From Escherichia phage BB1, in sequence record NC_106597.1: a DNA stretch of 64,000 bases; one strand, given 5' to 3'. The position numbers and the translations under genes were made by a program. Positions 1,759 to 33,043 of the stretch are shown in pieces. Positions within the stretch are counted from its first letter, which is position 1. The number at the start of each line of letters is the position of its first letter. The notes under the pieces were generated by a model. That model did not search any database and was not told the origin of the DNA. It worked only from the letters and a program-made list of their open reading frames with translations.

Positions 1759-1766
1759 GCAGAAAT

Positions 1767-1843
1767 TGGCGTCCTGTGCGGGGATCGAACCCACAAATCC
1801 TACCTTGAAAGGGTAGTGACTTTACCAGTTTGTCTAACAGGAC
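1767..1843 (-). tRNA. tRNA-Glu (anticodon UUC)
   Basis: Manual fold: perfect acceptor (gtcctgt/acaggac), anticodon stem ctacc/ggtag with loop rc of ttgaaag, T-loop TTCGATC, encoded CCA. Confidence 0.75.
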
Positions 1844-2325: not shown

Positions 2326-2342
2326 ATCCTTTACCTTTAATT

Positions 2343-2430
2343 TGGTGGGCGTTAATGGAGTCGAACCACTCGAGTCGCAATGACCAGGGATTTACAATCC
2401 CCTCCGCTACCACTTACGGAATAAACGCCC
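2343..2430 (-). tRNA. tRNA-Tyr (anticodon GUA), long variable arm
   Basis: Manual fold: acceptor GGGCGTT/AACGCCC, anticodon loop TTGTAAA, long variable region, T-arm AGTGG-TTCGACT-CCATT, CCA encoded. Confidence 0.75.
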
Positions 2431-2558
2431 ATATTTAAAAGTATTCAAATACTAGTTTAAACACTTTTAAATATGTTTCCAAATTAGATAACTATTATAC
2501 CAAGTTTTAAGGCACTGAGCAAGTCAAATTTTAAAGAACTTGCTCAGTGCTGTATTAG

Positions 2559-2834
2559 TTAGTCGAACTTAGGAGTGACAGTTAAGGAGAATGGAAGTTC
2601 GAAGACTTCTTCGCCCTCATCACTAACAGTAATTACACGACCTTTAAGTTCAGACATTGAAATATCAATATCAGCTTTTGCATCTGGAGCCATGCCAGCT
2701 TCAACACATTTAGCTTTAATTTCCGGCAGAAGTTCTACATCGTAGAAATAAAGCCATTCAATCTCACCTTCCCAGCCTTCCCAGGATTTACAGATTGCAC
2801 TTTCAATACCAGTTGCTATAACACGATTTTGCAT
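2559..2834 (-). CDS. hypothetical protein (91 aa)
   Basis: ORF with GAAGGAG RBS. Confidence 0.5.
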   Translation of the reverse strand: MQNRVIATGIESAICKSWEGWEGEIEWLYFYDVELLPEIKAKCVEAGMAPDAKADIDISMSELKGRVITVSDEGEEVFELPFSLTVTPKFD

Positions 2835-2924
2835 TCGTTAACTCCTTCATCAATTTATATAACTATTATACCAGAAATTTAAAGCAAAAGGCAAGTACAT
2901 TTTTAAAAATTCTGTTTGGAGGAG

Positions 2925-3131
2925 CTAAACTCCAGATTCTTCAGCTAAGTCTAGGCTAATAAGAGATATAGCCATAATTGCTGCTCCGTGTTCTCTTTCT
3001 CCTGTCTCTTTAGCTAGGGTTATAATATCAAGAAATTGCTTATGAAAGTCTGCAACCTCTTGAGTCATACCTGCCTCAGCAATCATGCCTTTAAGCATGA
3101 AACGTTGTGCGGTAATTTCGGGATTAGCCAT
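2925..3131 (-). CDS. hypothetical protein (68 aa)
   Basis: ORF with GGAG RBS. Confidence 0.45.
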   Translation of the reverse strand: MANPEITAQRFMLKGMIAEAGMTQEVADFHKQFLDIITLAKETGEREHGAAIMAISLISLDLAEESGV

Positions 3132-3291
3132 GTTGTTTCTCCAGTTTCATGTTTAATAGTCTACAAATAAAATCAATGTCTTCATCTGTGCCTAGATCTC
3201 TATCTTCAAGAGTTGCCTTGAAGTTTTTCGTCAATTCCATGAGGATAACTTCTCTAGAACGACGTGTTGGCGGAGGTGGATGTCTATACAT
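3124..3291 (-). CDS. hypothetical small protein (about 55 aa, proline-rich N-terminus), below ORF-track size cutoff
   Basis: Hand-translated MYRHPPPPTRRSREVIL...; AAGGAAATAAG RBS; stop overlaps start of downstream gene. Confidence 0.4.
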   Translation of the reverse strand: MYRHPPPPTRRSREVILMELTKNFKATLEDRDLGTDEDIDFICRLLNMKLEKQHG

Positions 3292-3305
3292 CTTATTTCC
3301 TTAAG

Positions 3306-3382
3306 TTGGTAGGGGTGGTGGGATTCGAACCCACAAAACCTGAATTTTAAGTCCAGTACCTATGCCAATTCGATTACACCCC
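3306..3382 (-). tRNA. tRNA with anticodon UAA (Leu-type) but short class-I variable loop
   Basis: Manual fold: acceptor GGGGGTG/CACCCCT, anticodon arm CTGGA-CTTAAAA-TTCAG, variable GTTTT, T-arm GTGGG-TTCGAAT-CCCAC, A73, CCA encoded; D-arm does not pair canonically. Confidence 0.55.
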
Positions 3383-3484
3383 CATGTAATCAGTTTATTA
3401 GTTGGTACATATTATAGCCTAGTGAAAATCCTACTACTAGTCCCACAAACCAACCAATATAATAATCTTTTAGTTTCACAGGTA

Positions 3485-3670
3485 TTATCCTCGTTCAATA
3501 TCTAGGGAAATACCGCAGTTAGGATTAATACCTGTACCGTTGCAATTTGAACAAATCCAGATATTGCAAAAAGTATCTCCTGCTTCTGCATCAGAACTTT
3601 CACCAATTCCCCTACATTCAGGGCAGGCACATTCTTCTAGCTCTTGCTTGAGTTCTTGAAACTTAGACAT
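3485..3670 (-). CDS. small Cys-rich zinc-ribbon-like protein (61 aa)
   Basis: CxxC...C...CxxC pattern (CACPECRG...CNIWICSNCNG); AAGGAG RBS. Confidence 0.5.
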   Translation of the reverse strand: MSKFQELKQELEECACPECRGIGESSDAEAGDTFCNIWICSNCNGTGINPNCGISLDIERG

Positions 3671-3679
3671 ATAGTCTCC

Positions 3680-3868
3680 TTAGTCAATTACTTTTGAGGC
3701 TTCAAGGGAGTCGATATAGTATACGTTTTCTACCATAATCATATAATCTGCCACTTTATCCATAGCTTGGGCCTCAGAGGTAGCTCTGGCTAACCTATAT
3801 CCTTTTTTATATTCATCCGGGTATTCTCTATCTTGAATAAACACAACATAAACTATGTATAATTCCAC
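3680..3868 (-). CDS. hypothetical small protein; start uncertain (GTG at 3868 or ATG at 3763)
   Basis: Track ORF 3680-4015 overlaps tRNA 3888-3965, so truncated to the first plausible start after the tRNA with a GGGGA RBS. Confidence 0.3.
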   Translation of the reverse strand: MELYIVYVVFIQDREYPDEYKKGYRLARATSEAQAMDKVADYMIMVENVYYIDSLEASKVID

Positions 3869-3887
3869 TTGTAATCCCCTAATTAAG

Positions 3888-3965
3888 TTGGTGGCTCCCC
3901 GAGGATTCGAACCTACGTACCTTCCGGTTATGAGCCGGGTGCTCATACCATATGAGCTTGAGAAC
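3888..3965 (-). tRNA. tRNA-Met or tRNA-Ile (anticodon CAU)
   Basis: Manual fold: acceptor GGTTCTC/GGGAGCC (with G-U), D-arm GCTC/GAGC, anticodon arm CCGG-CTCATAA-CCGG; T-stem only 3 bp; CCA encoded. Confidence 0.55.
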
Positions 3966-3971
3966 CAAAAT

Positions 3972-4065
3972 CTGGAGGAAGATGCCAGACTCGAACTGGC
4001 ACACCATGTTTCCACAGTTACTGGCTGTTTAGCAAACAGCTCCCTTACCTTTAGGGTTAATCTTC
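3972..4065 (-). tRNA. tRNA-Ser (anticodon GCU)
   Basis: Manual fold: perfect acceptor GGAAGAT/ATCTTCC, 3-bp D-stem, anticodon arm GCTGT-TTGCTAA-ACAGC, long variable arm, T-arm GCCAG-TTCGAGT-CTGGC, CCA encoded. Confidence 0.65.
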
Positions 4066-4087
4066 CGAATTTATAAGATATATTATA

Positions 4088-4609
4088 TTAGAAATTTAGC
4101 TTCATAGCAAGAAAATTTTTCAAGTTTTCGGTAGACATCTCATCTACATCTACAGGAGAAACAAAGCCGTTTAATTTTCTAGCAAATTTTTCACCATCGG
4201 GATCATTGTCTCCAACAGCTACCAATTTAAAAGGTAGTAATTTCAGTTGCTTTAATAACGCTTTTCCTGGAGAAGAACCCAACATTGCTAGGGCTGGATA
4301 ACCAGCGTTATGTAACGCAACTGCCTTAAATACAGATTCAGCAATCAATACTACTTTTTCATCTCCATTGAGAGTTTCTAGTCCCCATACACACTGGGTA
4401 GTAGAATAAGTAAAGTATTTAGCTTCAAAGGGGCACTTACCATGACCTTTTGGAGCAGAAGGATTATAAGTTTGATAGCCCCTCAACATCCCAGAGAAGT
4501 CATACAACGGGACTGTTAGCCATCCTTCTGGACTTAACCAGCAATGATATTTATCTGTATCAAATCCCCTAGATAAGAGGTGCTGTGTTAGCTCATCAAC
4601 ATTCATATT
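4088..4609 (-). CDS. Toprim-domain-like protein (about 173 aa)
   Basis: Conserved-looking E (IAESVF) and DxD (VGDNDPDGEKF) resembling the Toprim fold; start moved to MNVDELTQ with GAGAGGAACC RBS downstream of promoter 4637-4665. Confidence 0.45.
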   Translation of the reverse strand, partial: NMNVDELTQHLLSRGFDTDKYHCWLSPEGWLTVPLYDFSGMLRGYQTYNPSAPKGHGKCPFEAKYFTYSTTQCVWGLETLNGDEKVVLIAESVFKAVALHNAGYPALAMLGSSPGKALLKQLKLLPFKLVAVGDNDPDGEKFARKLNGFVSPVDVDEMSTENLKNFLAMKLNF

Positions 4610-4636
4610 TGGTTCCTCTCTCAAATTTATAGATAT

Positions 4637-4665
4637 ATTATACAGAGAATTTAGCATTCAAGCAA
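4637..4665 (-). promoter_or_regulatory. early promoter (minus sense TTGCTT-17-TATAAT)
   Basis: attata 4637-4642, 17-bp spacer, aagcaa 4660-4665. Confidence 0.6.
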
Positions 4666-4781
4666 TCAAATTTTTTAACTTTTTAGAGGAAAATCATAGG
4701 GCACTTAAGGGTAGCAGATAAGTGGTGAGGACCAAAATTTGTGACCCCACTAAAAATCCGGGGGCAATTTTTAAAGACCCC

Positions 4782-4810
4782 TTGACATTTTCGCTGGGGT
4801 AGTGTAAAGT
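4782..4810 (+). promoter_or_regulatory. sigma70-type promoter (TTGACA-17-TAAAGT) sharing the 13-mer TTGACATTTTCGC with the element at 34512
   Basis: Consensus -35 at 4782-4787; 17-bp spacer; -10-like TAAAGT at 4805-4810. Confidence 0.5.
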
Positions 4811-4872
4811 ATATGTTATGGATGAGTGATCAAAGAGACACACATTTTCTATATACTAGGAGGTGTCAAAAA

Positions 4873-5859
4873 ATGACAGAAGAAGTAGCTAAGAGTCCTG
4901 AGACCGTCGCTAGCGTTGCAGCAGAACTGCACCGTCACGAGGAATCAGATAAGAAAAAGTGGGAGAAGGTCAGAGCCTACGAAGAAAAACATCGTGAACA
5001 CGATGATGAAGAAGATGACGATGATGAACATTGTCATAAATATGGAAAACATAAAATGCAAGAACCAGTAAACGTATTCACTAGTGGCTTCCCTGGCCTA
5101 CTGGGTGGTTACCCAGCAAACGCAGGTGCTTTCGGTGGTGAAGGTATGGGACTATTCGGAGCTATCCTAATCGGTGCTCTATTAACAGGCGGATTCGGTG
5201 GTTTCGGTGGATTCGGTGGACGTGGTGTAGTTGGTGAAGGTACCGCAGTTGATGCGGTACTTCAGAACCAAGATACCGCTAGTATTCTAGCAGCTATTAA
5301 CACTACTCGTACAGAAGCTAATCAGGGTACTGGGGCTGTGTTAAGCGCAGTTAACAATGGTTTTAGCCAGACATCCCAAAACCAGAGCCGTGATACTCAG
5401 TCTGTACTAACTACGATTTATGGTACAGGTGCTAATCTGTCTAATCAGATCTGCCAGGAAACTCGCAACGTTATTCAGGGTCAGTTCGATCTTTCTCGCC
5501 AGATTGATCAATCTTTCGCAGCTAACCAGATAGCTCGTGCACAAGATAAATTTGATTCTGCACAGATCGCTTTCCAGCAGACTTTACAAACTAATAACCA
5601 GTTTGCCGCTGTTCAGGCTCAGATGTGTGCTAACCAGAACTCTCTGGAACGTCAGATCGCTGAATGTTGCTGTGAACTTCAGACTGCGATCGCTGGTGTA
5701 ACTACTGCGCGTATCCAGGATGAGTTAGATGCATGTCGCCTACGTGAGGCAATCGCTGCGGGTAATGGTGCTAACGGTCAGGTAATTAATCAAATCGCTG
5801 TAAGTCTTGGTGCAATCACTCAGACTCTGGCTGGTCTGCAGGCTAAACTGCCGGCTTAA
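4873..5859 (+). CDS. low-complexity protein: acidic/His-rich N-terminus, Gly-zipper hydrophobic segment (GGFGGFGGFGG), Q/N/S/T-rich C-terminal region
   Basis: AGGAGGTG RBS 7 nt before ATG at 4873 (track ORF starts earlier at 4813); by eye GC and codon choice look higher than neighbours. Confidence 0.6.
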   Translation: MTEEVAKSPETVASVAAELHRHEESDKKKWEKVRAYEEKHREHDDEEDDDDEHCHKYGKHKMQEPVNVFTSGFPGLLGGYPANAGAFGGEGMGLFGAILIGALLTGGFGGFGGFGGRGVVGEGTAVDAVLQNQDTASILAAINTTRTEANQGTGAVLSAVNNGFSQTSQNQSRDTQSVLTTIYGTGANLSNQICQETRNVIQGQFDLSRQIDQSFAANQIARAQDKFDSAQIAFQQTLQTNNQFAAVQAQMCANQNSLERQIAECCCELQTAIAGVTTARIQDELDACRLREAIAAGNGANGQVINQIAVSLGAITQTLAGLQAKLPA

Positions 5860-5880
5860 TATTAAGGGGAGGAGCCCATT

Positions 5881-6297
5881 ATGAGTAAATATGGTTTTGT
5901 AAATAACGGACTTAATCAAAGTATGGGCTCCCAGCAGCCCATTCCGGGTCTGGATAACCCCTACTTACAACAGTTGCAACAGCGTTTAGCAGAAGCGCAA
6001 CAGATGCAGCAACAACTCCAGCAAAACCCTGGAAGTGTGAGTCCTATGCAAATGATGCAGCAAATGAGCGGGCAGTCGCAAATGCCTCAACAAATGCAGC
6101 AACAGGTGCCTCAGCAGCAAGTTCAGCAACAAACCCAACAACCGCAGGTTTCTGCGGAAGGACAGGCAGTACTAGCCCTTTTCGAAGACTTCGCAAAGAC
6201 AGAGGATGGGAAACAGCTTGTATCACTTATGGGTAAGTTTAATAGCTTCTGCCAAAGCCAAGTTGCAAAAGCTCAAAATGGGGGTAGTAACTCCTAA
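5881..6297 (+). CDS. glutamine-rich low-complexity protein (138 aa)
   Basis: GGGGAGGAG RBS; long poly-Q/QM stretches. Confidence 0.55.
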   Translation: MSKYGFVNNGLNQSMGSQQPIPGLDNPYLQQLQQRLAEAQQMQQQLQQNPGSVSPMQMMQQMSGQSQMPQQMQQQVPQQQVQQQTQQPQVSAEGQAVLALFEDFAKTEDGKQLVSLMGKFNSFCQSQVAKAQNGGSNS

Positions 6298-6306
6298 GGA
6301 GGAAAT

Positions 6307-6501
6307 ATGTGTTGCAGAAAATCTGTTTCGTGCTGCCCAATGCCTGTAGCACGTTGTTGCTCTCCAGCAATGTTTACACAAATACCGGCGTTCAATCCCT
6401 TTGCCTTTAAGCCTACTCTTATCCTGCCCCCTAGAGTAGATTTTCAGTCAAGATTGGCCTCCCGTATGGGTGGTTGCTGTACACCGAGAGTATGGTTCTA
6501 A
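6307..6501 (+). CDS. small Cys-rich protein (64 aa, four CC dipeptides)
   Basis: TAAGGAGG RBS 5 nt upstream of ATG; followed by intrinsic terminator. Confidence 0.45.
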   Translation: MCCRKSVSCCPMPVARCCSPAMFTQIPAFNPFAFKPTLILPPRVDFQSRLASRMGGCCTPRVWF

Positions 6502-6511
6502 ACCAAAAACA

Positions 6512-6548
6512 AAAGCCCCTGCCGAAAGGTAAGGGGCTTTTTCTTTTG
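6512..6548 (+). terminator. rho-independent terminator
   Basis: Hairpin aaagcccct...aaggggcttt followed by T-run. Confidence 0.65.
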
Positions 6549-6556
6549 CCTTAAAT

Positions 6557-6592
6557 ACAGAAAAGCCCGCGCTCTCGTAGGAAACGCGGGCT
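6557..6592 (-). terminator. rho-independent terminator (minus sense), downstream of SPFH gene
   Basis: GC-rich hairpin gcccgcg...cgcgggc with T-run in minus sense. Confidence 0.55.
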
Positions 6593-6616
6593 TGGTTCGA
6601 AGATTACGTGTAACTA

Positions 6617-7564
6617 TTACTTGTTACGCATATCCATGATCATTTGACCATCGTAGCCAGTACCTACCACAGTCTGAGGTACACCACCTTGATACTTCTG
6701 AGCACGGATCATTTCAACTTCCAATTGCTTCCAACGAATCATCTCAGGAGTAATGGTACGTTGCAATGCGGCGTTAGCTTCAGCTTCTTTCTTAGCTGCG
6801 TACAGTTTAGCATCTGCGTCACGTTCATTAGCAATAGCTTGGTTGTTACGAGCTTCACGATCTGCTTCTGCTTGTTTAACTTTTTGCTGTGCTTCCTGTT
6901 CAACGCGAGCAAGTTCAGCTTTCGCAGCATTAACTTGCTCTTCACGAACTTTGGTATTCTGTACCTGTTCCATGATTACTGGCGGCAAAGTAATATCCTG
7001 AAGGAACACCTGCTTAACTGTGTAACCATATGGGCGTGCATACTCTTCAACTTCCTGTTGAATTGCAGTTTGCAATTGAGCCTGAATTTTAGCATCAAAT
7101 AAATCTTGTGCTTTAGGTACAGACTTACCAAACTCACGAATAGTAGACAGTAATTTTTCAGTTACATACTTGTCTAGTGCCTGATCCTGAGTACCTGCGT
7201 TAATACGGTTAATCGGTGCTTTAGAACCATCAAACTGCAACATAACAGTCAGGTCAACAGTGGATTTAAACTTATCCTGGCTAGGAACCTGAAGTTTATC
7301 TAATTTTACAGCAATATCTTTTGTACTAAAAGTATCGAAAGATGCAAACGGGTTTACAAGATGGAAACCCGGCAATACTGGATTAGGGTCTACTTTACCC
7401 AGGAATGTTTGGGTTTTAACCGTACCATCAGAAACAATAGTATATGAATTAAAAGCTAGGATTAAACCTGCTAAACCAACTACAGCACCAATACCCCAAC
7501 GTTTAATAGTACGAATTACTTTCTGCTCAGAAGTCAGTTCTTTCATATTTTTAGTAGCAAACAT
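6617..7564 (-). CDS. SPFH/band-7 (prohibitin/HflK-HflC-like) membrane protein
   Basis: N-terminal TM helix (IGAVVGLAGLILAF), SPFH-like core, C-terminal Ala/Glu-rich coiled coil; AAAGGAAAT RBS. Confidence 0.75.
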   Translation of the reverse strand: MFATKNMKELTSEQKVIRTIKRWGIGAVVGLAGLILAFNSYTIVSDGTVKTQTFLGKVDPNPVLPGFHLVNPFASFDTFSTKDIAVKLDKLQVPSQDKFKSTVDLTVMLQFDGSKAPINRINAGTQDQALDKYVTEKLLSTIREFGKSVPKAQDLFDAKIQAQLQTAIQQEVEEYARPYGYTVKQVFLQDITLPPVIMEQVQNTKVREEQVNAAKAELARVEQEAQQKVKQAEADREARNNQAIANERDADAKLYAAKKEAEANAALQRTITPEMIRWKQLEVEMIRAQKYQGGVPQTVVGTGYDGQMIMDMRNK

Positions 7565-7598
7565 ATATTTCCTTTGTTTTAGTTACAGTTAATAAAAT

Positions 7599-7673
7599 TG
7601 GCCGAGGTGACAGGATTCGAACCTGCATAAAGGAATTTAGAAGACTCCTGCCTCTCCCTTAGACTACACCCCG
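7599..7673 (-). tRNA. tRNA-Arg (anticodon UCU)
   Basis: Manual fold: T-arm GCAGG-TTCGAAT-CCTGT, anticodon stem with loop rc of ttagaag, acceptor pairs with one G-U, CCA encoded. Confidence 0.7.
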
Positions 7674-23885: not shown

Positions 23886-24075
23886 GGGTTTAAACGCCGC
23901 TTTGGAAAACGCATTAATGCAGCGCTGGGAAACTGGCTATAAGGATGGTGTTGAATCCTGCGCTACTATGCTAGAAGTTATTGCTAATACCTTAAGGGAG
24001 AAAGGCAATAAAGAATTAGCTGAGCTATTAGACAGTATTGGGCAAAACTTCAGAGAACAGGTGAAAAATGCGTAG
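23854..24075 (+). CDS. hypothetical small protein (73 aa)
   Basis: ORF with GAGGAGAAAC RBS. Confidence 0.5.
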   Translation: MAFSKPMLPDKGLNAALENALMQRWETGYKDGVESCATMLEVIANTLREKGNKELAELLDSIGQNFREQVKNA

Positions 24076-24883
24076 ATTAATTATTATTAGCGGTGCAGGT
24101 TTGAGTGTTGAAAGTGGTGTACGAGCTTTTCGTACTGATACTGCTAGTGGTAAAGCATTGTGGGATGATTATGATCTAGAAGAAGTATGTAATATTCATG
24201 CCTTTCGTGGTAATTTTTATCATAAAACCCATATGTTTTACAACAAGCGTCGTGAAGAGCTAAAAACTGTTGAACCCAATCTTGCGCATTTGCGTATTGG
24301 TGAATGGTATAAACAATATCCAGGTCAAGTAGTAAACTTGACTACCAACGTTGATGACCTTATTGAGCGTGCTGGAGTATCAAAAGAAGACATACTCCAT
24401 ATTCATGGGTACCTGAAAGAAATTATAGTAGAGCACGCATTCGACCAGACACGTGATATTATTGATATTGGGTATAGCTCTATTGACCCCGATGACTTTG
24501 ACTGGGTTAAACCTAATGTAATCTTCTTTGGAGAGCATGCTCCAGCGTACAAAACAATGTATGAGATTTTTGATGGCATTACCGGTCAAGATATGATCAT
24601 TGTGGTTGGTTGCTCTAACCAAGTAATTAACTTCTACTGGGAATTATTTCCTGTTCTTAATTTGACTGCTGCGAAACTTATGGTTGTTAACTACTATGAT
24701 AGTGCCCTCGCGGCGGAACCGGGCTATCAAGGTATGACTCGTAGTGAGATGTACCAGCTGGAAGAACGCGGTATACCTTACTGGAGTAAAGGTGCGGTAG
24801 ATGCTTTCAGTGATCCTGATTTTATTGCTCGTGTAGAAGCTCATTTAGAGGGTAGACCCTATGTGTCGGGAAGCAAGAAATAA
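24068..24883 (+). CDS. Sir2 (sirtuin)-family NAD-binding protein, no zinc ribbon
   Basis: Sirtuin motifs GAGLSVESGVRAFR, TTNVDDL, HIHG, PNVIFFGE; no CxxC...CxxC zinc module. Confidence 0.7.
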   Translation: MRRLIIISGAGLSVESGVRAFRTDTASGKALWDDYDLEEVCNIHAFRGNFYHKTHMFYNKRREELKTVEPNLAHLRIGEWYKQYPGQVVNLTTNVDDLIERAGVSKEDILHIHGYLKEIIVEHAFDQTRDIIDIGYSSIDPDDFDWVKPNVIFFGEHAPAYKTMYEIFDGITGQDMIIVVGCSNQVINFYWELFPVLNLTAAKLMVVNYYDSALAAEPGYQGMTRSEMYQLEERGIPYWSKGAVDAFSDPDFIARVEAHLEGRPYVSGSKK

Positions 24884-25036
24884 TGAATGGGATATTTTTA
24901 TAACTGAGTCTGGCACTTGGTGTTATAGGTTTGCCTACAGATTTCCCAGTGTAAGAAAACGGTTGGGATACACGTATAAAATTATCTATACTACTGATAA
25001 TATATGGTTATCATCTGGGGAAGAGGAGAAACAGAT

Positions 25037-25219
25037 ATGTCCATAGTTAAATCTGTGTATACACATCCCGAGGATATATTTGTATGGGCAGATGGTAGTT
25101 GGTGCTATAGATGTGAGTTATGGGAAATGGACTATAAATCTGATGACTATGGTGTCATATATGTTGATACGGTTGAGTATGATACGTTCTTAGAAAGGAA
25201 CAAAAATGGAAATAAGTAA
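25037..25219 (+). CDS. hypothetical small protein (60 aa)
   Basis: Start set at MSIVKSVY with GAAGAGGAGAAAC RBS. Confidence 0.45.
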   Translation: MSIVKSVYTHPEDIFVWADGSWCYRCELWEMDYKSDDYGVIYVDTVEYDTFLERNKNGNK

Positions 25220-25712
25220 TACTCCAATTATTTTTCTAGATATTGATGGGGTGCTCAATTCGAGCATCTCCCACCATCATGCACCTGATGACGAAAAGAT
25301 TTTCTTTGGAAGTGACTGGGTTTTCAAACCGCTTCTCAAGGCTTTTCAGGACTTTATTCGTCCTTCTCCGATAATGATTGTTGGAGTATCCTCATGGTTC
25401 TCTGTCAGGAATGAGATGGAGAACGTTCAGATTATGACCGGATTAGGCCTTATTGATCGTTTTCTTGGTACAACGGATTTTACTGGTGGTGGGCTATCTA
25501 GGGGTAATTCTGTTCTTCGCTTCGTTGAAAAGCACAAGCTCAAACACTGGTGTGTGCTGGATGATGCTGGTGCTATGATGTATCAGTATCCAACAGTTAT
25601 AGTTAATGGTAGAACTGGGATAAATCTTCAAGATTTAAGAGCTGTTAGCTATATGTTAGAATTTAGTCCAGATCTTGAAATGTGTAAAGCCCTACAACAA
25701 TTTAAGGTGTAA
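25206..25712 (+). CDS. HAD-superfamily phosphatase-like protein
   Basis: HAD motif I FLDIDGVLN and downstream VLDD; AAAGGAAC RBS. Confidence 0.65.
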   Translation: MEISNTPIIFLDIDGVLNSSISHHHAPDDEKIFFGSDWVFKPLLKAFQDFIRPSPIMIVGVSSWFSVRNEMENVQIMTGLGLIDRFLGTTDFTGGGLSRGNSVLRFVEKHKLKHWCVLDDAGAMMYQYPTVIVNGRTGINLQDLRAVSYMLEFSPDLEMCKALQQFKV

Positions 25713-25714
25713 AT

Positions 25715-26143
25715 ATGTTCAATAATGTATTTTCTAAAGAAGCTAACCCAATATTGGTTAATTTTTGGCGTACTCTTCCAGCCAACCTGTACAACGAGGC
25801 TATTAATGCTCTGAAAATATGGTGTGAGAATAATGAAATCTCCTTTGCTTTTAAAGGTGAGATTGAAGAGGCTCCCTGTATTGGTTTAATTGTGCAGGTA
25901 GAGGATGGTCTTGAAGAGATTGTCGGCTGGAAAGAGCTAGATGAAATGGGCTTGGTTTTTGCGTTAAACTATAAGCTGTTTATGCCTAATAAACACCGTA
26001 TTGTTGTTAACTATAAAACCAATGAATCTCCTGGTTTTCAAGTTAATGAACATTACGGTTGGTCTTACTCACCGGAAGAGGTAAATGATGGTATCCAGAA
26101 ACTTCGTCGTTTTGGTTATCAGATTCCTGGTTTAACTGCCTAA
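25715..26143 (+). CDS. hypothetical protein, paralog A of a tandem pair
   Basis: Shares pattern PCIG...W.EL.EMGL.FALN..LF.P...Y.PE...L.R.GY.IPGL with 26153-26545. Confidence 0.55.
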   Translation: MFNNVFSKEANPILVNFWRTLPANLYNEAINALKIWCENNEISFAFKGEIEEAPCIGLIVQVEDGLEEIVGWKELDEMGLVFALNYKLFMPNKHRIVVNYKTNESPGFQVNEHYGWSYSPEEVNDGIQKLRRFGYQIPGLTA

Positions 26144-26152
26144 GGGGGCACA

Positions 26153-26545
26153 ATGGAACAAGTATATTGGCGTCAGATTGATCCTAGTTTGGTGAAGCGT
26201 GCGGAGAAGCTGCTACAACGTTGGTTGGGGGTAAGACAAGCCTCCTTCACTTTTCCGGAGCAGCAAATAGACGATCCCTGTATTGGTGTTTTCCTATCAG
26301 GCTACGCTAGGGAATGGGAATTGGATTGGAATGAGTTGTCTGCTATGGGTTTAATTGTTGCACTAAATTTCTCTTTGTTCCATCCACGTGGTTTGGCCAT
26401 ATGTCGTGTGCCTGATGACGGTTGTTCGCCCCATCTTTTACAGGTGGAGGATGATATTTGGGAGTACACTCCAGATATTCTCAAAGAAGCTAAAGAACAG
26501 TTAAACCGTGTTGGGATCTATGTTCCAGGCCTGAATGATGAATGA
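26153..26545 (+). CDS. hypothetical protein, paralog B of a tandem pair
   Basis: Alignable by eye to 25715-26143 over most of its length. Confidence 0.55.
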   Translation: MEQVYWRQIDPSLVKRAEKLLQRWLGVRQASFTFPEQQIDDPCIGVFLSGYAREWELDWNELSAMGLIVALNFSLFHPRGLAICRVPDDGCSPHLLQVEDDIWEYTPDILKEAKEQLNRVGIYVPGLNDE

Positions 26546-26636
26546 TTTTTATTAGCTGAAATTTGTAATCCGGGCTATTAGTGCTCGGATTATTACATAA
26601 TCTTTCCAGTCGATTAACAGTCAAAATAAATTGTCG

Positions 26637-26665
26637 TTGACAATTTGGATGGATTATGTAATAAT
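26637..26665 (+). promoter_or_regulatory. sigma70-type promoter (TTGACA -35) upstream of HNH endonuclease
   Basis: TTGACA 26637-26642, 17-bp spacer, AATAAT -10. Confidence 0.5.
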
Positions 26666-26684
26666 ATATGTATTGGAGGTGAGG

Positions 26685-27137
26685 ATGTCATTCACACAGC
26701 AAGAACTTTTAGATAACTTCCGATATGAAGATGGTAAGTTATTTAGAACTACAGGAAGAAATGCAGGGAAAGAATGTTGTGTTTCTACGGGTAACGGATA
26801 TTATCGTATATCTCTAGGGAATAGGACTATGCTTCGGCATAGAGCAATATTTTTAATGCATCATGGATACTTACCTGATTTAGTAGATCATGTGAACACT
26901 ATAAAAGGTGATGATCGTATTGAAAACCTTAGAGAGCAGACAGTATCTGGTAATCTAAGAAATATCAAATATAAGAAAGGAATGCATGTTTACCCTTCTG
27001 GTAGTAAGAACTGGCAAGTAGTATTTACTATTAACCGTAAACGTATAGTTAAAGGAACATATGACAACTATGAGGTTGCATGTTCTATGGCCAAGATGTT
27101 TAGAGGTCAATTATACGGTAGGGAATCAATCCAGTAA
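26685..27137 (+). CDS. HNH homing endonuclease (HNH_3 + AP2-like DNA-binding domain)
   Basis: HRAIFLMHHGYLP...VDHVNTIKGDDRIENLREQT motif; start set at MSFTQQ after GGAGGTGAGG RBS. Confidence 0.8.
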   Translation: MSFTQQELLDNFRYEDGKLFRTTGRNAGKECCVSTGNGYYRISLGNRTMLRHRAIFLMHHGYLPDLVDHVNTIKGDDRIENLREQTVSGNLRNIKYKKGMHVYPSGSKNWQVVFTINRKRIVKGTYDNYEVACSMAKMFRGQLYGRESIQ

Positions 27138-27145
27138 AATTTCAT

Positions 27146-27175
27146 TTGCAAGGGAGTATTATTTTATAGTATAAT
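27146..27175 (+). promoter_or_regulatory. early-type promoter (TTGCAA-18-TATAAT) without an adjacent ORF
   Basis: -35 27146-27151, -10 27170-27175; followed by degenerate leader and no start codon for about 500 nt. Confidence 0.5.
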
Positions 27176-27672
27176 ATTCCCATAAATGAGAGACATTAGT
27201 AAAAATTGATTTTGCTAATTTTTCTTGTTTACAATCCGCGATACGGAACAGTTAGGCTGCCCCATTAAGGGTTGTTTTAACTGTTACGTGTTAGTTTTTA
27301 AACAAATAGTTAATAGAATACTTAGCGATCTGCGTCCCGTAGGAACCCTGGTAAGGCCTCGAAGCAACCTAGATAGAGGTGGTTGTGAAGTGAGACGGGA
27401 GGAGTGAAAAACTCCGAGACGTGATTCTGTAAGTTATATTGCATCTAGTATGAGCTAGTATATGAAGCATTAGGTGAGCAAATCTGGCTTAGCGGCCATC
27501 CTCAAGGATTTGTGCGGTATAGCAAAGCAGCAGCGCAGCGTGAAAGTGGAAGTTGCCACCCCACTTCAGTATTTGCAATTAATTTGTTGAGAAATTGACA
27601 GTAACAGTTGTTCTATTCTTTCTGAATAGTCCTAAAGAAAACTTATTTCATTTCCAACACAGGAGTATTGTT
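27176..27672 (+). other. long untranslated segment; candidate structured RNA or regulatory leader
   Basis: About 500 nt without a credible RBS+ORF, several GC-rich hairpins (e.g. ggagt-gaaaa-actcc at 27401-27415), GC-richer than typical intergenic DNA here. Confidence 0.3.
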
Positions 27673-30459
27673 GTGTTTTCAATCCTACAAGGTCATGCAG
27701 GATTTCATCGCGATTTAGCCACAGGCAATTGGCGAGAAGTTAAGGCAGAAGATTATCTTTTTGCTAAAAGATTTTCCTCAAAGCATCCTGAAGGTAAACC
27801 AGCTTCAATGCCCTTCAAGTTTGATGTAATTGATGAAGTTGATCCTCAAACCCTAGTAGAAATGCTTCCTCTTATGAGACGTTTAACGTCTGACCCTCAT
27901 ATCGTTGCGGTACGAGGTCGATGTCTTGCACCTAAAAATAATGTGCGACGTAAGAAGGGCAACTTTAATGTATCTAACCCAAGTCATATAATTGCAATGG
28001 ACGTGGATGGTATTGTAGATACAGGTGGTTGTAACAAGTTTGATCTTGTTGGCATGGCTCGACATATTATTAGGATGTTAAATAGTATTAGTGAGGATAT
28101 GTTTCCTCTTGATGCAGGGTTTATTGCTCATGCATCGTCTTCGGCCGGACTAAAACCAGGTATCCGAATGCACTTAATACTAGAATCTAATGTTAAAGTA
28201 ACTCAGGGTCAAATCAAATTCTTATTTACATCTATCAACGAAAGTAGTAGACAAAAGTATGGCTTTGATATTGCCGACTTAGCTTATTACTCTTCTGTAC
28301 AGCTCCATTACTTTGCAGATCCTTTATTTATTGATGGTATAGTTGATCCGTTTAAAGCGGAGGGTGCTTCACGTCTGGTATTTGTTAAAGGCTCAAAAGT
28401 AAATTTACCTAATAATCTAGTTGACTATGAAACAACTAGAGGAGAGTTTAAAGAGGAATTCTACTCCCTACTCGATCAAATTAAAGGTAAAAAAGCTGCC
28501 TCTGATAAAGTAGAAGAAACCATCAGCGAATTAGAAGAAGCTGAGGATGGTGTATATCTACGTATTATTCCTAAACTCTATCACCGAGCACTAGAGGATG
28601 GTGTAGATTTTGGCTGGCTAGAGAAGGAGATCCGCCCAGCTTTATCTGAGTATATTGCAACTAAAGATAATAGTCGTAATATTCAAGATTACTTTAATAA
28701 CGGTCGAAAACAGGCTCTGAAAGCATTTGTTAATAATTCTAAACGTGATATACCTGATGTTTTAAAAGGTATTCCGCTTAAAAAGCTAGAAACTAACTCT
28801 CTAGAAACAGATAATTTCCTGAAATTAAACACTGTACCACCAGAAGGTTACATGACTTTTGTAAAAGCAAGTCTAGGCACAGGTAAAACCACGGCGGTTG
28901 TGCGTTGGTTAGATTCAGGGGTTATTAAAGGTAATTTCTTAGCAATTACCAATACTAGAGCACTGGTATCTTCAAATGCCAAGAAATTTAGTGCAGGACA
29001 ATATGATAAGTCTGTAGATATGCTTAATTTTAAGCGTGGTGCTATTGACCGTATGTCCACAACTATCCACTCTTTACATAAGTTTAAGAGTTTTATTGGC
29101 CAAATTGATGCAATCTTTATCGATGAATGTGATGCAGTAATGAATGACCTATTATTCGCCCCGGTTGTTAAGCAACGTCGCGAGTGTATTCAGGTTCTTC
29201 GGGATATTCTTGCAACTGCGAAAATAATTATATTATCTGATGGGGATATTAGTGCAGAAACAATTGAAGCATATGGTTCTTTGATTGAATTTGATAAACC
29301 GGTCGCATTTTATAATCATCATCGTAAGATGCTGTCAAAAGCTCATGCTTATGAGTTCCCTGATGAATCCAGTATTTGGGTTGCACTCCAGACTTCTCTA
29401 GAGATGGGTGAGAAATCTATTCTAGTATCTGATTGTGGTCCTGATGAGCTGAATGAGAAGGGTATGGCACTGCGTCGTAATACGGGTGCGTTAGTTAAGG
29501 AAATCCATTCAAACTCCACCTCAGATGTGGATATTCGACGTATTCTGGATTATACAACTAATGAGCTAATTGATCAACAAATTGATTGCTTATTATGTAG
29601 TCCATCCGTAACGAGTGGCGTTGACTTTAACTATTTCGATAATGTATTTGTTATTACTAGAACCAGTAATCAAGCGCCAAACATGCGTTTTCAAGCAATC
29701 AGGCGCGACCGTGGTGCTCAGAATATCTATTATTTTATTGATAAATCTACGAGTGGATTCTCCGCAGGTTCTGAACAATATAACATTGATGAAGGTTGGC
29801 TGGAGTTAGCACAGCAATTATACGCACGTCGCAGGGAGCTGGAATCTAGGAACTATACTAGTACTTTACGTTATTACTTGCTTGATCAGGGTGCAACTAT
29901 TGATATTTTCAGCGAAAGCTGGGGAACTATTGAAGGTGCTGGTAAAGAATATACAGAAGAGCGAATCAAAGCTATTCTGCATTCAACTCCAGATTATTGT
30001 GCTCCACGTCATGCGGATGCATATGAAGCTAAACTACTTCTTGTTCGCTATTACCATCTTGAGTCTATTAAAGATGTAACAGTTGAGCATGTTGAACAAT
30101 ATATCAAAGATAAACCAAATGATCGAGCTGCATTCTTCCATAAGATGCACGAGATGTTCTGGGAAGACATTAAGAAGTGTTCAAATGTAACCATTAAACC
30201 ATTCATAGAAGCTCTGAAAGGTAAGAAGAAAGACTTCTTCCTTAAAACAGGTCAGAGTGCTAACCCAAAATATGCTAGAATGTATCTTGGTATGATGGGT
30301 ATTGGTAAGGATATGAACACTGAAAATATCGTAGACTGGTACAGAACCTATTGTAAAATCGAATGTATGCCAATTCCTTTCAAATTCATGACAGAGGAAG
30401 AGAAAGCTATGGCAGAAGAAGTAATGTCCGAACTTGGAGCAACTAATGAAGATGCATAA
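27673..30459 (+). CDS. putative primase-polymerase (AEP-like N-domain) fused to P-loop NTPase/helicase
   Basis: N-terminal IIAMDVDG and SSSAGLKPGIRMHL resemble AEP motifs; Walker A LGTGKTT, Walker B IFIDECD; start set at GTG 27673 7 nt after AGGAG. Confidence 0.6.
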   Translation: MFSILQGHAGFHRDLATGNWREVKAEDYLFAKRFSSKHPEGKPASMPFKFDVIDEVDPQTLVEMLPLMRRLTSDPHIVAVRGRCLAPKNNVRRKKGNFNVSNPSHIIAMDVDGIVDTGGCNKFDLVGMARHIIRMLNSISEDMFPLDAGFIAHASSSAGLKPGIRMHLILESNVKVTQGQIKFLFTSINESSRQKYGFDIADLAYYSSVQLHYFADPLFIDGIVDPFKAEGASRLVFVKGSKVNLPNNLVDYETTRGEFKEEFYSLLDQIKGKKAASDKVEETISELEEAEDGVYLRIIPKLYHRALEDGVDFGWLEKEIRPALSEYIATKDNSRNIQDYFNNGRKQALKAFVNNSKRDIPDVLKGIPLKKLETNSLETDNFLKLNTVPPEGYMTFVKASLGTGKTTAVVRWLDSGVIKGNFLAITNTRALVSSNAKKFSAGQYDKSVDMLNFKRGAIDRMSTTIHSLHKFKSFIGQIDAIFIDECDAVMNDLLFAPVVKQRRECIQVLRDILATAKIIILSDGDISAETIEAYGSLIEFDKPVAFYNHHRKMLSKAHAYEFPDESSIWVALQTSLEMGEKSILVSDCGPDELNEKGMALRRNTGALVKEIHSNSTSDVDIRRILDYTTNELIDQQIDCLLCSPSVTSGVDFNYFDNVFVITRTSNQAPNMRFQAIRRDRGAQNIYYFIDKSTSGFSAGSEQYNIDEGWLELAQQLYARRRELESRNYTSTLRYYLLDQGATIDIFSESWGTIEGAGKEYTEERIKAILHSTPDYCAPRHADAYEAKLLLVRYYHLESIKDVTVEHVEQYIKDKPNDRAAFFHKMHEMFWEDIKKCSNVTIKPFIEALKGKKKDFFLKTGQSANPKYARMYLGMMGIGKDMNTENIVDWYRTYCKIECMPIPFKFMTEEEKAMAEEVMSELGATNEDA

Positions 30460-30964
30460 ACCAATGCCTCCTATGGAATTTATCCTAGAAAAGCTTAGGT
30501 ATGACGAAAGTACTGGGGACTTAATTTGGTTATCTGGCCCAAGGAAGGGAAAGGTAGCGGGCTCCAAAATGAAAACTGGGAGACAGCTAGAGTTTACGAT
30601 AAATGGGGAGCGGACAGCTTACTTAGCCCATAGAATAATCTGGTTTATAAAGACAGGCGAAGATCCTGGAGATAAAACTATCGACCATAAAGACGGTGAT
30701 AGTTTAAACAACTTGTGGGATAATTTACGTAAGGCTACCTATTCCGAAAATGGAAAGAATAAGAAGTGTTCTACTAATTCTACCGGATTCACTGGAGTTG
30801 TAAAACGAGGTAATAGGTATATGGCCTACGCTTACTGCGATGGAAAGCAGCATATTTTTGGTAGACGAGATACCCCGGAAGAAGCCCATCAGCTATACCT
30901 TAGGGGAGTTAAAGAGCTGTTTGGTGAATTTAATCCCTCGGAGAGATATGACAGTGAAGAATAA
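30446..30964 (+). CDS. HNH homing endonuclease (second copy, HNH_3 + AP2-like)
   Basis: AHRIIWFIKTGEDPGDKTIDHKDGDSLNNLWDNLR motif and GFTGV...AY AP2-like region; GGAG RBS; overlaps 3' end of upstream gene. Confidence 0.75.
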   Translation: MKMHKPMPPMEFILEKLRYDESTGDLIWLSGPRKGKVAGSKMKTGRQLEFTINGERTAYLAHRIIWFIKTGEDPGDKTIDHKDGDSLNNLWDNLRKATYSENGKNKKCSTNSTGFTGVVKRGNRYMAYAYCDGKQHIFGRRDTPEEAHQLYLRGVKELFGEFNPSERYDSEE

Positions 30965-31181
30965 AAAATGGGAAACAAGGAAGTTCCCAGTAAAAGAGCG
31001 TAAAGTTCCTGTTTACGACACTTCGGAAAAGCTATGTAGGGTGGTACCACATAGATTAGCTGGCATCCCTAACATATCCGAGTGGTTACTTAAACAACGG
31101 AAAACAAACGTGTCTCTTCGCATCGGCTTTGAATTAGATAAAGTCTATGCTGAACTTGCTTCTTTGCTCAAGGAATCGTAA
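30948..31181 (+). CDS. hypothetical small protein (77 aa)
   Basis: Start set at MTVKNKKW with GGAGAGAT RBS; overlaps HNH 3' end in another frame. Confidence 0.45.
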   Translation: MTVKNKKWETRKFPVKERKVPVYDTSEKLCRVVPHRLAGIPNISEWLLKQRKTNVSLRIGFELDKVYAELASLLKES

Positions 31182-31189
31182 AAATTTAT

Positions 31190-31218
31190 TTGCTTTCAGG
31201 AAAATTTTTCTGTATAAT
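31190..31218 (+). promoter_or_regulatory. early promoter (TTGCTT-17-TATAAT)
   Basis: -35 31190-31195, -10 31213-31218; conserved leader attcataaatttgagagagg. Confidence 0.7.
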
Positions 31219-31249
31219 AGATTCATAAATTTGAGAGAGGAGTTTAAAT

Positions 31250-31951
31250 ATGGCTGGTTCTCGCAGAAAGAAACATATCCATGAAATCCCGGATGAAGTC
31301 TTCAAAAAGGTTATAGAGCATCTAGAGAACGGTGGTACTAAGAAAGCAGCATGTGAAATGCTCGGCGTATCATCCAATCCAACTATGGAAAGGATGATTG
31401 AAGAATGGCAAGACCGCCAGATCCAAGTTGCCGAAATGAAGAAAAAGAAACGTGGCACACTCATTGAAGGCATCGAGTTAGCCAACGTTATTGAACAGTA
31501 TTTATCTGGTGATTCTTTTGAAGAGATTGCCGATCGTAATTATCGCTCTGTAGCAATGGTTAAATCTGTTCTGGAACGCTACGGTGCTCTACTTCGTTTG
31601 AATGATATTGTGGATCCATTGAATCCTCCGATTATTCCTGATGATGCTGTAGCAGAAGAATTTGCAGTTGGTGAGCTTGTTTGGGTTCCTGGATACCAGT
31701 GTATTGGTGAAATCAAAAAAGCAATGGATAACCCTGTTGGTTGTTACCGTGTATGGCTTTTATCAGAAGGCAAACAACAGAACGTTCATTATATGAATTA
31801 CGAGCTGGCTTCTGTTAAACATCTGGAAAAGCTAGGGGTTGATGTAAAATCTCTGGGATACAAGTGGACTCGTGAAGAAGTAATTTCGTTGATTAACGAA
31901 GCTGTTAAGGCTGCCCTGAAACTTGATAAAGAAAAAAGGAAAACGCCGTGA
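31250..31951 (+). CDS. putative DNA-binding protein with N-terminal helix-turn-helix
   Basis: HTH-like segment GGTKKAACEMLGVSSNPTMERMI; no other recognisable domain. Confidence 0.5.
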   Translation: MAGSRRKKHIHEIPDEVFKKVIEHLENGGTKKAACEMLGVSSNPTMERMIEEWQDRQIQVAEMKKKKRGTLIEGIELANVIEQYLSGDSFEEIADRNYRSVAMVKSVLERYGALLRLNDIVDPLNPPIIPDDAVAEEFAVGELVWVPGYQCIGEIKKAMDNPVGCYRVWLLSEGKQQNVHYMNYELASVKHLEKLGVDVKSLGYKWTREEVISLINEAVKAALKLDKEKRKTP

Positions 31952-32193
31952 GTAAACTAACAGATTTACTGAAAGCTGGGGACGTAAAATATCTCCAGCG
32001 AGATTGCTGGAAAAACGATAAAAACTTTATGCTTCTTTTTGAGTTTAATGTTGACAATGATACCATCAAAAGTTTTGCACCATTGCCCACAGGTATTTTT
32101 GAAAATTTTAAACGATCACATAAGCAAGATGTGGAGTTAACTTTAGAAGAAATTCTAGCGGATGATTGGGAGATTGTTGAGCTAGATGTGTAG
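31948..32193 (+). CDS. hypothetical protein (81 aa)
   Basis: ORF overlapping upstream stop (ATGA). Confidence 0.5.
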   Translation: MSKLTDLLKAGDVKYLQRDCWKNDKNFMLLFEFNVDNDTIKSFAPLPTGIFENFKRSHKQDVELTLEEILADDWEIVELDV

Positions 32194-32213
32194 CAATTAC
32201 CGAAAAATTTCAG

Positions 32214-32242
32214 TTGCTTAATCCTATAATTCTTGATATAAT
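32214..32242 (+). promoter_or_regulatory. early promoter (TTGCTT-17-TATAAT)
   Basis: -35 32214-32219, -10 32237-32242. Confidence 0.6.
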
Positions 32243-32299
32243 ATTCTCATAGTTTGAAAGAACTATTCTGTTTAATTCTTAATTAAGGAAATATAAAAT

Positions 32300-32710
32300 A
32301 TGACTACTCCAACTCAGTGGACTGATGAACTGTTCGAAAAAATGTCTTCCGAATACGTTGCTCGTATGGAGCAATTCCCAGAGGATGAACGTCCGGGTGT
32401 TAGCATGGAAATTGTTAGCGAAATTGCTCAGGAAAATGGTGTAACTCCGAACGGTTTTCGTATGAAGTTGACCAAAGCAGGTGTATATATCAAGAAAGCT
32501 GCTGGCTCTGCTTCTAAATCTAGCGCATCTACTGGAGAAAAGGCTTCTGGTGGTTCTCGTACTTCCAAAGCCCAAGCTCATGCCGACCTTCGTTCAGCAT
32601 TCTCTGATGCTGGCTTAGCCCCAGATTTTCTGGATGATGCAATTATCGACAAACTGACCGGTAAAGCGGCTGCTCATCTGGCAGAAGCAATCCGAGCTAT
32701 CACTAAGTAA
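32300..32710 (+). CDS. hypothetical protein (136 aa)
   Basis: ORF with AAGGAAAT RBS. Confidence 0.55.
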   Translation: MTTPTQWTDELFEKMSSEYVARMEQFPEDERPGVSMEIVSEIAQENGVTPNGFRMKLTKAGVYIKKAAGSASKSSASTGEKASGGSRTSKAQAHADLRSAFSDAGLAPDFLDDAIIDKLTGKAAAHLAEAIRAITK

Positions 32711-32746
32711 TTTTAGATAAATCCACCAACAAAAGGAACTACAGTT

Positions 32747-33043
32747 ATGACCAAAGCTGAAATTATCGCACAATGTGAAAAATTTGGTGAGTTTTATCTT
32801 CATTACGAGAAACTTCGTCAGAAAGGAACCACGTACCTTCAGGGTACGATGGAATTTGATCCAGCCCAAGATAAATATCTGGCTGAGCGTATTAAACGTG
32901 AACGTATTCGTAAAGCGAAAGATGATGAGATCCTTGTCTTCTCTCGTACTAATGATAGCTTCCGTTTTATTCCTGTCGAAAAAGTCCGTCGTGTGACTAG
33001 CCTCCAATCAGAGTTAGATCGTGCTTCTCCAGTAGGCCGATAA
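32747..33043 (+). CDS. hypothetical protein (98 aa)
   Basis: ORF with AAAAGGAAC RBS. Confidence 0.5.
   Translation: MTKAEIIAQCEKFGEFYLHYEKLRQKGTTYLQGTMEFDPAQDKYLAERIKRERIRKAKDDEILVFSRTNDSFRFIPVEKVRRVTSLQSELDRASPVGR

Follow-up and report, generated by a model that had tools for sequence, protein, structure and literature searches.

Conserved folded domains in the leader of a single gene family mostly act in cis, and a long stalk formed by the sequences flanking a folded RNA is a classic RNase III substrate; such duplex stalks are cut by RNase III in the lambda N leader, in the T7 early mRNAs, and in rRNA precursors. Among model phages, T5 is a classic, and its relatives are often isolated for use in biocontrol and therapy. 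The T5 protein D2 was described as a bipolar helicase and "replication origin binding protein" with a PF02399 domain at residues 392-532, and a part in the initiation of replication was proposed for it (Wong et al. 2013, PMC3632103). We analyzed a stretch of 64,000 nucleotides from Escherichia phage BB1 (NC_106597.1; hereafter the window, whose coordinates are used throughout), which belongs to a T5-like phage (Tequintavirus), and in particular the untranslated segment at 27176-27672 between an early promoter and the large replication gene D2, also named obp. Two HNH endonuclease genes lie on either side, one upstream of the promoter and one at the 3' end of D2. Taken as a whole, the segment is best explained by comparative analysis as an ancestral non-coding structured RNA of T5-like phages, perhaps a cis-acting D2 leader. 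An earlier reading of this DNA from its letters only (the sequence-only reading) had pointed out the locus, and all of the sequence features that it described were found where it had placed them.

Several described systems resemble this locus in part. As in the RNase III stalks of the lambda N leader, the T7 early sites, and the rRNA precursors, a long imperfect duplex is built from the sequences on either side of a folded domain and, as in the lambda and T7 cases, it lies between a promoter and a gene. The RNA has no sequence or Rfam relation to any of these; its head is far larger than in the lambda or T7 sites, and its cleavage is a prediction. ColE1 RNA II and the T4 origins oriF and oriG likewise combine a promoter with an untranslated structured transcript of ~0.5 kb, of conserved length and in a replication context; unlike them, the T5-like locus shows no homology to these systems, no antisense partner was seen, and no origin is mapped there. 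GOLLD, ROOL, HEARO, raiA, and OLE, large structured RNAs of bacteria and phages that Rfam lists without a known function, are similar in size class, number of helices, covariation support, and phage association, but the RNA studied here differs from them in being tied to one gene and in having no Rfam match. Finally, the gene next to it is the same as the published T5 D2, with the helicase domain at the same position, while the AEP-like N-terminus reported below is not stated in the parts of that paper drawn on here (PMC3632103). The features of the locus, all on the + strand, are as follows; the helices were derived from a comparison of twelve variants.

27146 to 27175, + strand: predicted early promoter, counterpart of T5P32 (P32); TTGCAA, 18 nt, TATAAT; 10/12 matches
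27196 to 27218, + strand: leader hairpin P0 (UUAGUAAAA / UUUUGCUAA), present in the minimum-free-energy fold
27241 to 27265, + strand: motif M1 (AUACGGAACAGUUAGGCUGCCCCAU) and its small hairpin, CAG[UUAGG]CUG, inside the block 27220-27269
27280 to 27325, + strand: 5' arm of the P1 stalk, A+U-rich, between M1 and P2; pairs with 27568-27609
27326 to 27568, + strand: multi-helix head of 243 nt with about twelve helices, covered by covariance model R1
27330-34 with 27534-38, + strand: helix P2
27335-40 with 27395-400, + strand: helix P3
27347-49 with 27354-56, + strand: helix P3a
27358-61 with 27391-94, + strand: helix P3c
27364-69 with 27381-86, + strand: helix P3b
27401-05 with 27411-15, + strand: helix P4
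27428-30 with 27527-29, + strand: helix P7'
27435-41 with 27515-21, + strand: helix P7
27442-47 with 27471-76, + strand: helix P8
27479-85 with 27506-12, + strand: helix P5
27486-88 with 27495-97, + strand: helix P5a, which closes the UUAGCG loop
27544-49 with 27561-66, + strand: helix P6
27568 to 27609, + strand: 3' arm of the P1 stalk, between P6 and the last hairpin
27613 to 27629, + strand: hairpin P9 (CUAUUC UUUCU GAAUAG), between the stalk and the ribosome-binding site
27673 to 30459, + strand: large replication gene, T5 D2/"obp", 928 aa; PHROG 3712 over its full length

The segment is an old part of the genome. When 26560-27700 was used as a query (megablast, blastn), 436-444 phage records were matched, all of them T5-like (Tequintavirus and relatives) and the best 99% identical, and the gap upstream of D2 was present in all 444 T5-like records matching it, with or without HNH genes; in T5 itself it lies at 59.14-59.61 kb. 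The gene order of the annotated records, including T5, is the same, with small early genes followed by a promoter, a gap of ~470-500 nt, and obp. The gene found upstream of the RNA varies (DUF7415, Sir2, NrdD, or HNH), while the RNA always accompanies D2/obp on the same strand. This constancy against a changing neighbor argues for a functional link to D2.

No protein seems to be encoded in the gap. The sequence-only reading had found no credible open reading frame (ORF) there, and indeed each frame of the + strand carries 6-15 stops in 27176-27672 and 5-17 in eleven relatives, in which no ORF was conserved. The longest gap ORFs reach 21-39 aa and are placed differently from phage to phage. A missed protein gene was thus ruled out by stops in every frame and the lack of a conserved ORF. 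The public records examined annotate no RNA in the gap, which is either left blank or filled with short "hypothetical proteins". As no ORF is conserved, these are most likely spurious, and the annotation can be corrected in this respect. The GTG at 27673, which the same reading had taken as the start of the large gene, is the true start, since the N-terminus MFSIL(Q/E)GH is kept in all the homologs.

The length of the segment is conserved where its sequence is not. Between M1 and the start codon lie 408-432 nt in each of 12 variants, although BLAST can no longer align their cores. When the window is compared with T5, the leader and M1 are 100% identical (the block 27220-27269 is without a mismatch) and the coding sequence ~85% identical, whereas the middle 300 nt show 28-57% identity, beyond the reach of BLAST. 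This middle part holds an invariant string, CUUAGCGG, whose flanking arms differ in sequence yet remain complementary. The head contains an invariant UUAGCG hexaloop at 27489-27494. Of note, three window-type loci (L013, L025, and L034, at locus position ~1957-2047) carry an insertion of ~90 bp in the leader between the promoter and M1, in which part of the leader is duplicated; the RNA core is unaffected.

Covariation argues for an RNA. The variants and loci are labeled L0xx, with L028 being Shigella phage SHSML-45, L036 Pectobacterium phage DU_PP_V, L037 My1, and L055 phage Eos. A covariance model, R1, was built from six window-type sequences only and comprises 243 positions and 61 base pairs. 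In every T5-like type that was run, it gave full-length + strand matches just upstream of the large gene. The scores were 153 bits for L056, 142 for L050, 89 for L036, 55 for L037, 41 for L030 (which matches the D2 of a Klebsiella phage at the same identity), and 30 for L057; the weakest full-length matches were those of T5 (19 bits, E 4e-4) and L055 (14 bits, E 0.009). In the resulting alignment, 94.9% of 1030 cells are standard pairs, as opposed to 37-46% when the partners are slid by 1-3 columns, and changes on both sides were found in 53/61 pairs. The covariation score was 0.474 versus 0.05-0.11 for slid partners, and the observed values were reached by 0/500 shuffles. The P5/P5a region was also aligned with MAFFT without fitting to the model, adding Providencia-type sequences (L032, L060) and L038; 74.8% of the cells were paired versus 37-52%, with a covariation score of 0.53 versus at most 0.22.

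The outer hairpins change in a similar manner. Hairpins equivalent to P0 but of different sequence were found by eye in L036, L030, and L054, the M1 hairpin covaries to CGG/CCG in L050, L056, and L057, and hairpins at the position of P9 covary to CCAUC/GAUGG in L055, ACUAU/AUAGU in L050, and CUUUCC/GGAAAG in L036 (by eye). A pseudoknot in which AAGGCC (27353-27358) would pair with the 3' strand of the UUAGCG stem was considered and rejected, as it fails in L054, where the local stem stays.

The head sits on a long co-evolving stalk. The P1 duplex comprises ~35-45 bp between arms some 290 nt apart, and for 11 variants its predicted energies lie between -26 and -39 kcal/mol. When 5' and 3' arms were crossed in a 10 x 10 test, every 5' arm paired best with its own 3' arm (mean of -31.2 kcal/mol for cognate arms versus -16.4 +/- 4.9 kcal/mol for non-cognate ones). 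The stalk is also recovered by single-sequence folding, and its A+T-rich arms flank a G+C-rich core. Among the pair cells, G:U accounts for 11.1% and A:C for 1.5%. The + strand folds at -101.1 kcal/mol (z -3.66; 0/100 shuffles as good) and the - strand at -78.6 kcal/mol (z -2.26). The excess of G:U over A:C, the 22 kcal/mol advantage of the + strand, and the twelve nested helices therefore indicate an RNA rather than a DNA element. In the Pectobacterium phages, a TATAAT is found in the 3' arm of the stalk (L036 2405-2433, L037 ~2420-2440) with a perfect complement of 13-14 bp in the 5' arm, and in L036 this TATAAT is the -10 of a promoter-like site for D2. The same bases may thus serve as promoter DNA and as RNA stalk in these phages.

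On this comparative evidence, T5-like phages have a real structured RNA, with strong support, in the untranslated segment, in agreement with the suggestion in the sequence-only reading that its hairpins belong to a structured RNA and not to a missed gene; the covariation check was run, R1 supports the fold, and no ORF is conserved. The RNA matches no Rfam family: a search of Rfam 15, whose models include RNase P, tmRNA, 6S, riboswitches, group I/II introns, GOLLD, and ROOL, gave no match at E <= 1 in 24000-33000 and nothing relevant at E <= 5 in ten related loci. RNase P RNA was considered because of GAAAGnCC-like and GGCUUA-like strings and was discarded, as the would-be P4 pairing of the CR-I with the CR-V region fails in L037 (by eye), while the GGC/GCC stem around UUAGCG covaries locally there (GAC/GUC). 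In the literature search, neither a non-coding RNA of T5 nor a transcript map or an origin defined at the sequence level came up, and the RNA is apparently previously undescribed, although it could be listed unnamed in a catalog of over 10,000 phage RNA candidates (PMC10690425). It is a further large structured RNA of phages without a match in Rfam and, as a covariation-supported RNA of ~330-430 nt beside a primase-helicase gene, offers a concrete object for experiments on the control and start of T5 replication.

In more distant relatives, the picture is less uniform. R1 run without filters on the Providencia-type, the L038-type, and L061/L062 gave only marginal sub-domain matches, so the membership of the Providencia-type and the L038-type is assigned by the hallmark hairpin alone. 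Single-sequence folds of these gaps, and of those of Vibrio phages Brizo and 70E37-4, yielded z-scores that were not decisive. In the Providencia-type locus L060, an ORF of 56 aa lies between the RNA and D2/obp (1700-2000), bracketed by a direct repeat of ~21 nt (CCAACTTTTTGCACCCAAAAT); judged by its sequence, it looks like a small mobile or duplicated promoter module. Two metagenomic loci whose D2 is 62-64% identical, L061 (1680-2000) and L062 (1725-2000), have a gap that is G+C-rich and shorter (~250-300 nt); it lacks the UUAGCGG hairpin but has GAAUAGGUGG- and GUUGUGAGCGG-like strings, which may be a reduced version of the RNA.

ORF-poor gaps of ~0.7-1.1 kb are also found upstream of D2/obp in Vibrio phages JSF10, Brizo, and 70E37-4, and Aeromonas phage AhP_Mru1 has one of up to ~1.7 kb with two UUUAGCGG strings. 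The gaps of this kind were located as follows.

L039, 1328 to 2428: ORF-poor gap
L040, 1660 to 2371: ORF-poor gap
L041, 1773 to 2500: ORF-poor gap
L042, ~60 to 1750: ORF-poor gap

The Vibrio/Aeromonas gaps have 40-42% G+C in the two that were measured, and some of the records fill them with runs of "hypothetical proteins" of 30-60 aa. They may be larger relatives of the RNA.

The sequence-only reading had called the promoter at 27146-27175 a well-formed early-type promoter and an orphan. The first part of this description holds, as the site is present and is the counterpart of the annotated T5P32; the second does not, since the promoter, its leader, and the gap of ~500 nt occur in T5 and in every relative examined that lacks the HNH gene. 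The records of T5 (T5P32) and AKFV33 annotate a promoter at the same place. It should be noted that the promoter scan of the window gave 8 sites, only slightly over the 5.0 +/- 2.0 found in shuffles, and the promoter calls therefore rest on conservation and not on the scan alone. By its conserved position, the site is the normal early promoter of the locus.

The gene downstream of the RNA was analyzed as well. In the 928-aa protein, the P-loop helicase domain Pfam PF02399 was matched at residues 394-533, and the closest solved structures by sequence were herpesvirus origin-binding proteins (PDB, E 2e-5). No Pfam match was found in the N-terminal 390 aa (window 27673-28842), of which the first 300 aa are ~90% identical to those of T5. 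Residues D110, D112, S155, S157, G159, H167, and D202 are invariant in 37 homologs, down to 24% identity; in our reading of the alignment, these would correspond to the archaeo-eukaryotic primase (AEP) motifs I (DxD), II (sxH), and III (hD). An AlphaFold model of the N-terminal domain (pLDDT 89) gave top Foldseek matches in the PDB that were all AEP enzymes but weak (E 1e-3 to 0.1, TM-score 0.24-0.41), including the LigD polymerase, African swine fever virus (ASFV) PrimPol, S-2L PrimPol, RepB', and vaccinia D5. From the motifs and the model, the large gene looks like an AEP-like PrimPol fused to a UL9-like SF2 helicase, a description absent from the public annotation examined. The name "primase-helicase" used in the sequence-only reading is therefore fair, given predicted AEP motifs and primase-polymerase fold matches at the N-terminus and a UL9-like helicase in the middle.

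The terminator scan detected no terminator-like site within 27176-27672, and since there is none between the promoter and D2, the D2 transcript most likely includes the RNA as its 5' part. Transcription from the T5P32-type promoter would yield the RNA at the 5' end of the D2 message, where the head may bind a protein (possibly D2 itself) or a small molecule and thereby set D2 output. Alternatively, an RNase III-type double-strand-specific RNase may cut the long stalk, and a stable folded RNA would then be parted from the D2 message. As to its role, we tentatively favor, without holding it to be probable, a cis-acting and possibly processed leader that would set the amount of the primase-helicase. 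The choice is made because conserved folded domains in the leader of one gene family mostly act in cis and because the stalk is typical of RNase III substrates; at this locus, a conserved domain folds upstream of the coding region of one gene family only, within its 5' untranslated region, and the sequences to the 5' and 3' side of the folded RNA are predicted to join in a long duplex.

A number of observations speak against such a leader. No expression platform was identified, that is, neither a terminator/antiterminator pair nor a conserved pairing masking the ribosome-binding site (partly by eye); occlusion of this site by P4 or M1 was considered and dropped because the pairing is not conserved. 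A good sigma-70 promoter lies between the RNA and D2 in L036/L037 and in L038/L058, and the small ORF of L060 is inserted at the same place, so physical coupling between the RNA and the D2 start is not universal. More distant relatives, with D2 proteins 42-51% identical, do not have such an RNA. On the side of the method, the alignment used for the main pair counts was fitted to model R1, which favors structure, and for the T5-type sequences the alignment is incomplete in P3, P7, and P8. The intervening promoters and ORF argue against a simple translational operator and keep two other explanations alive, in which the RNA would act as an origin transcript or in trans.

An origin transcript would start T5 replication in the manner of ColE1 RNA II or T4 oriF/oriG, either through a persistent RNA-DNA hybrid that the transcript from the strong early promoter forms next to the initiator gene or by recruiting the primase-helicase. 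Such a role seems unlikely, even if much about the locus would suit it: a promoter and an untranslated, structured transcript whose length is conserved at ~430-500 nt lie directly upstream of an AEP primase/UL9-like helicase gene, whose product was proposed to act in replication initiation (PMC3632103), the A+T-rich stalk arms surround a G+C-rich core, and the T5 origin was never mapped to a sequence in the literature. The loose coupling of the RNA to the D2 start codon also fits an origin better than a translational operator. Against this stands the lack of iterons in the gap; neither these nor DnaA-type repeats were found there, and the direct repeats are short two-copy matches. Furthermore, the phage has its own primase domain and would not need an RNA primer, relatives without the RNA still carry D2, and the strand bias of recombitrons suggested a dominant one-directional replication that begins at one genome end (PMC10055335). 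The cumulative GC-skew minimum lies at ~20-22 kb, 5-7 kb upstream of the RNA. We infer that it may reflect a change in gene orientation, and GC skew was set aside as an origin marker for the same reason (minimum at ~21 kb, possibly a gene-orientation effect). The boldest form of this idea, which we also consider doubtful, is that the RNA would be the long-sought T5 origin element and would program the AEP-primase/UL9-like helicase via an R-loop or protein recruitment, with the fast-diverging, fold-preserving head as a type-specific determinant.

A large RNA acting in trans, with the head freed by cleavage of the stalk and serving, for instance, to sequester a protein of the host or phage (as decoy or sponge) or to counter a host defense, is quite unlikely in our view. 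Its size and complexity (a 243-nt head, ~12 helices, a stalk from the flanks) are closer to those of stable RNAs than to typical leaders, D2 has a separate promoter in some lineages, and the head has diverged far beyond its flanks while keeping its fold (28-57% identity, with the leader at 100% and the coding sequence at ~85%), a pattern compatible with an arms race. However, synteny with D2 is strict over deep divergence, no terminator of its own was found, and no target complementary to the conserved loops was detected within the 64-kb window. We regard as very improbable that the segment acts at the DNA level, with single-stranded hairpins or a cruciform read by the primase like the RSF1010 ssi sites and RepB', or that it is the functionless remnant of a decayed gene. 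The N-terminal domain does have RepB' as one of its fold matches, and long inverted repeats are present in the gap region, but the twelve nested helices, the 11% of G:U against 1.5% of A:C, and the 22 kcal/mol advantage of the + strand point to RNA, and the compensatory changes in 53/61 pairs exclude a decayed remnant.

The two HNH genes are a separate matter. Their features, together with the small gene that follows the second one, are listed below.

26561 to 27169, + strand: HNH1 mobile cassette of 609 bp; contains a hairpin resembling a terminator, a promoter of its own, the HNH gene, and, from the promoter downstream, the -35 half
26637 to 26665, + strand: promoter-like site of HNH gene 1; TTGACA, 17 nt, AATAAT; 11/12 matches
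26685 to 27137 (ATG to TAA), + strand: HNH gene 1, 150 aa, free-standing HNH_3 endonuclease; Pfam PF13392 E 2.3e-11, PHROG 99 E 1.5e-41
30446 to 30964, + strand: HNH gene 2, 172 aa, HNH_3 endonuclease; Pfam E 1.3e-12, PHROG 99 E 1.9e-53
30969 to 31181, + strand: small conserved gene (70 aa) after HNH2; PHROG 5291 E 8e-41; positional counterpart of T5.110

Both HNH proteins exceed the Pfam curated cut-off for HNH_3, and they are only ~31% identical to each other. The claim that HNH gene 1 has its own TTGACA promoter agrees with the predicted site at 26637-26665, and HNH gene 2 does overlap the 3' end of the large gene, with 14 nt shared at its stop. The sequence-only reading had also suggested past homing events around the large gene. 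This is borne out in that both HNH genes behave like mobile elements, with sharp presence/absence boundaries among near-identical phages; the gap, on the other hand, is not a by-product of HNH insertion. The comparison with phages lacking the HNH genes, which that reading had recommended, gave the insertion boundaries 26561-27169 and ~30450-30943.

HNH gene 1 is missing at the corresponding site in T5, and T5, L007, L008, L009, and L012 have ~99 bp, consisting of a terminator and a -35 region, in place of 26561-27169. Homology to the phages without HNH1 restarts exactly at 27170, the -10 element. The cassette thus supplanted the ~99 bp upstream of the -10 and left the RNA intact; it displaced the native terminator and -35 region and brought a promoter of its own. 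As a result, the promoter at 27146-27175 has a -35 half from the HNH1 cassette and a -10 half in common with T5. In SHSML-45 (L028), the promoter and leader occur once more behind the same cassette, and Shivani gives the same three-piece match. We infer that the arrangement of the window may have arisen by recombination between duplicated promoter/leader copies, as in SHSML-45.

The HNH2 cassette (~30450-30943) lies exactly where the large gene meets the small gene that comes next. T5 has it too, with 96.5% identity across 30200-31400 and an annotation as putative endonuclease, and it is missing in L004, L005, L007, L010, L012, AKFV33, and Shivani; in the phages without it, the counterpart of the 70-aa gene directly overlaps the end of the large gene. 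Like the free-standing HNH homing endonucleases of T5-like and T4-like phages (HNH_3, PHROG 99), the two genes are small, intergenic, and patchy among near-identical genomes. To judge by these boundaries, they are ordinary mobile insertions unrelated to the RNA, and neither of them touches it. They are already annotated as HNH endonucleases in public records, and there is nothing unusual about them.

Directly upstream of the HNH1 cassette, two adjacent ORFs (25715-26143 and 26153-26545) were observed, both with few stops over their length. DUF7415 is matched by the second, while the first can be aligned to the same T5.106/T5.107 pair in AKFV33; the two are probably paralogs. Elsewhere in the window, ten tRNA genes (Lys, Asp, Asn, Cys, Trp, Glu, Tyr, Leu, Ser, and Arg) are clustered on the - strand at 405-7673, in what we take to be the T5-type tRNA region.

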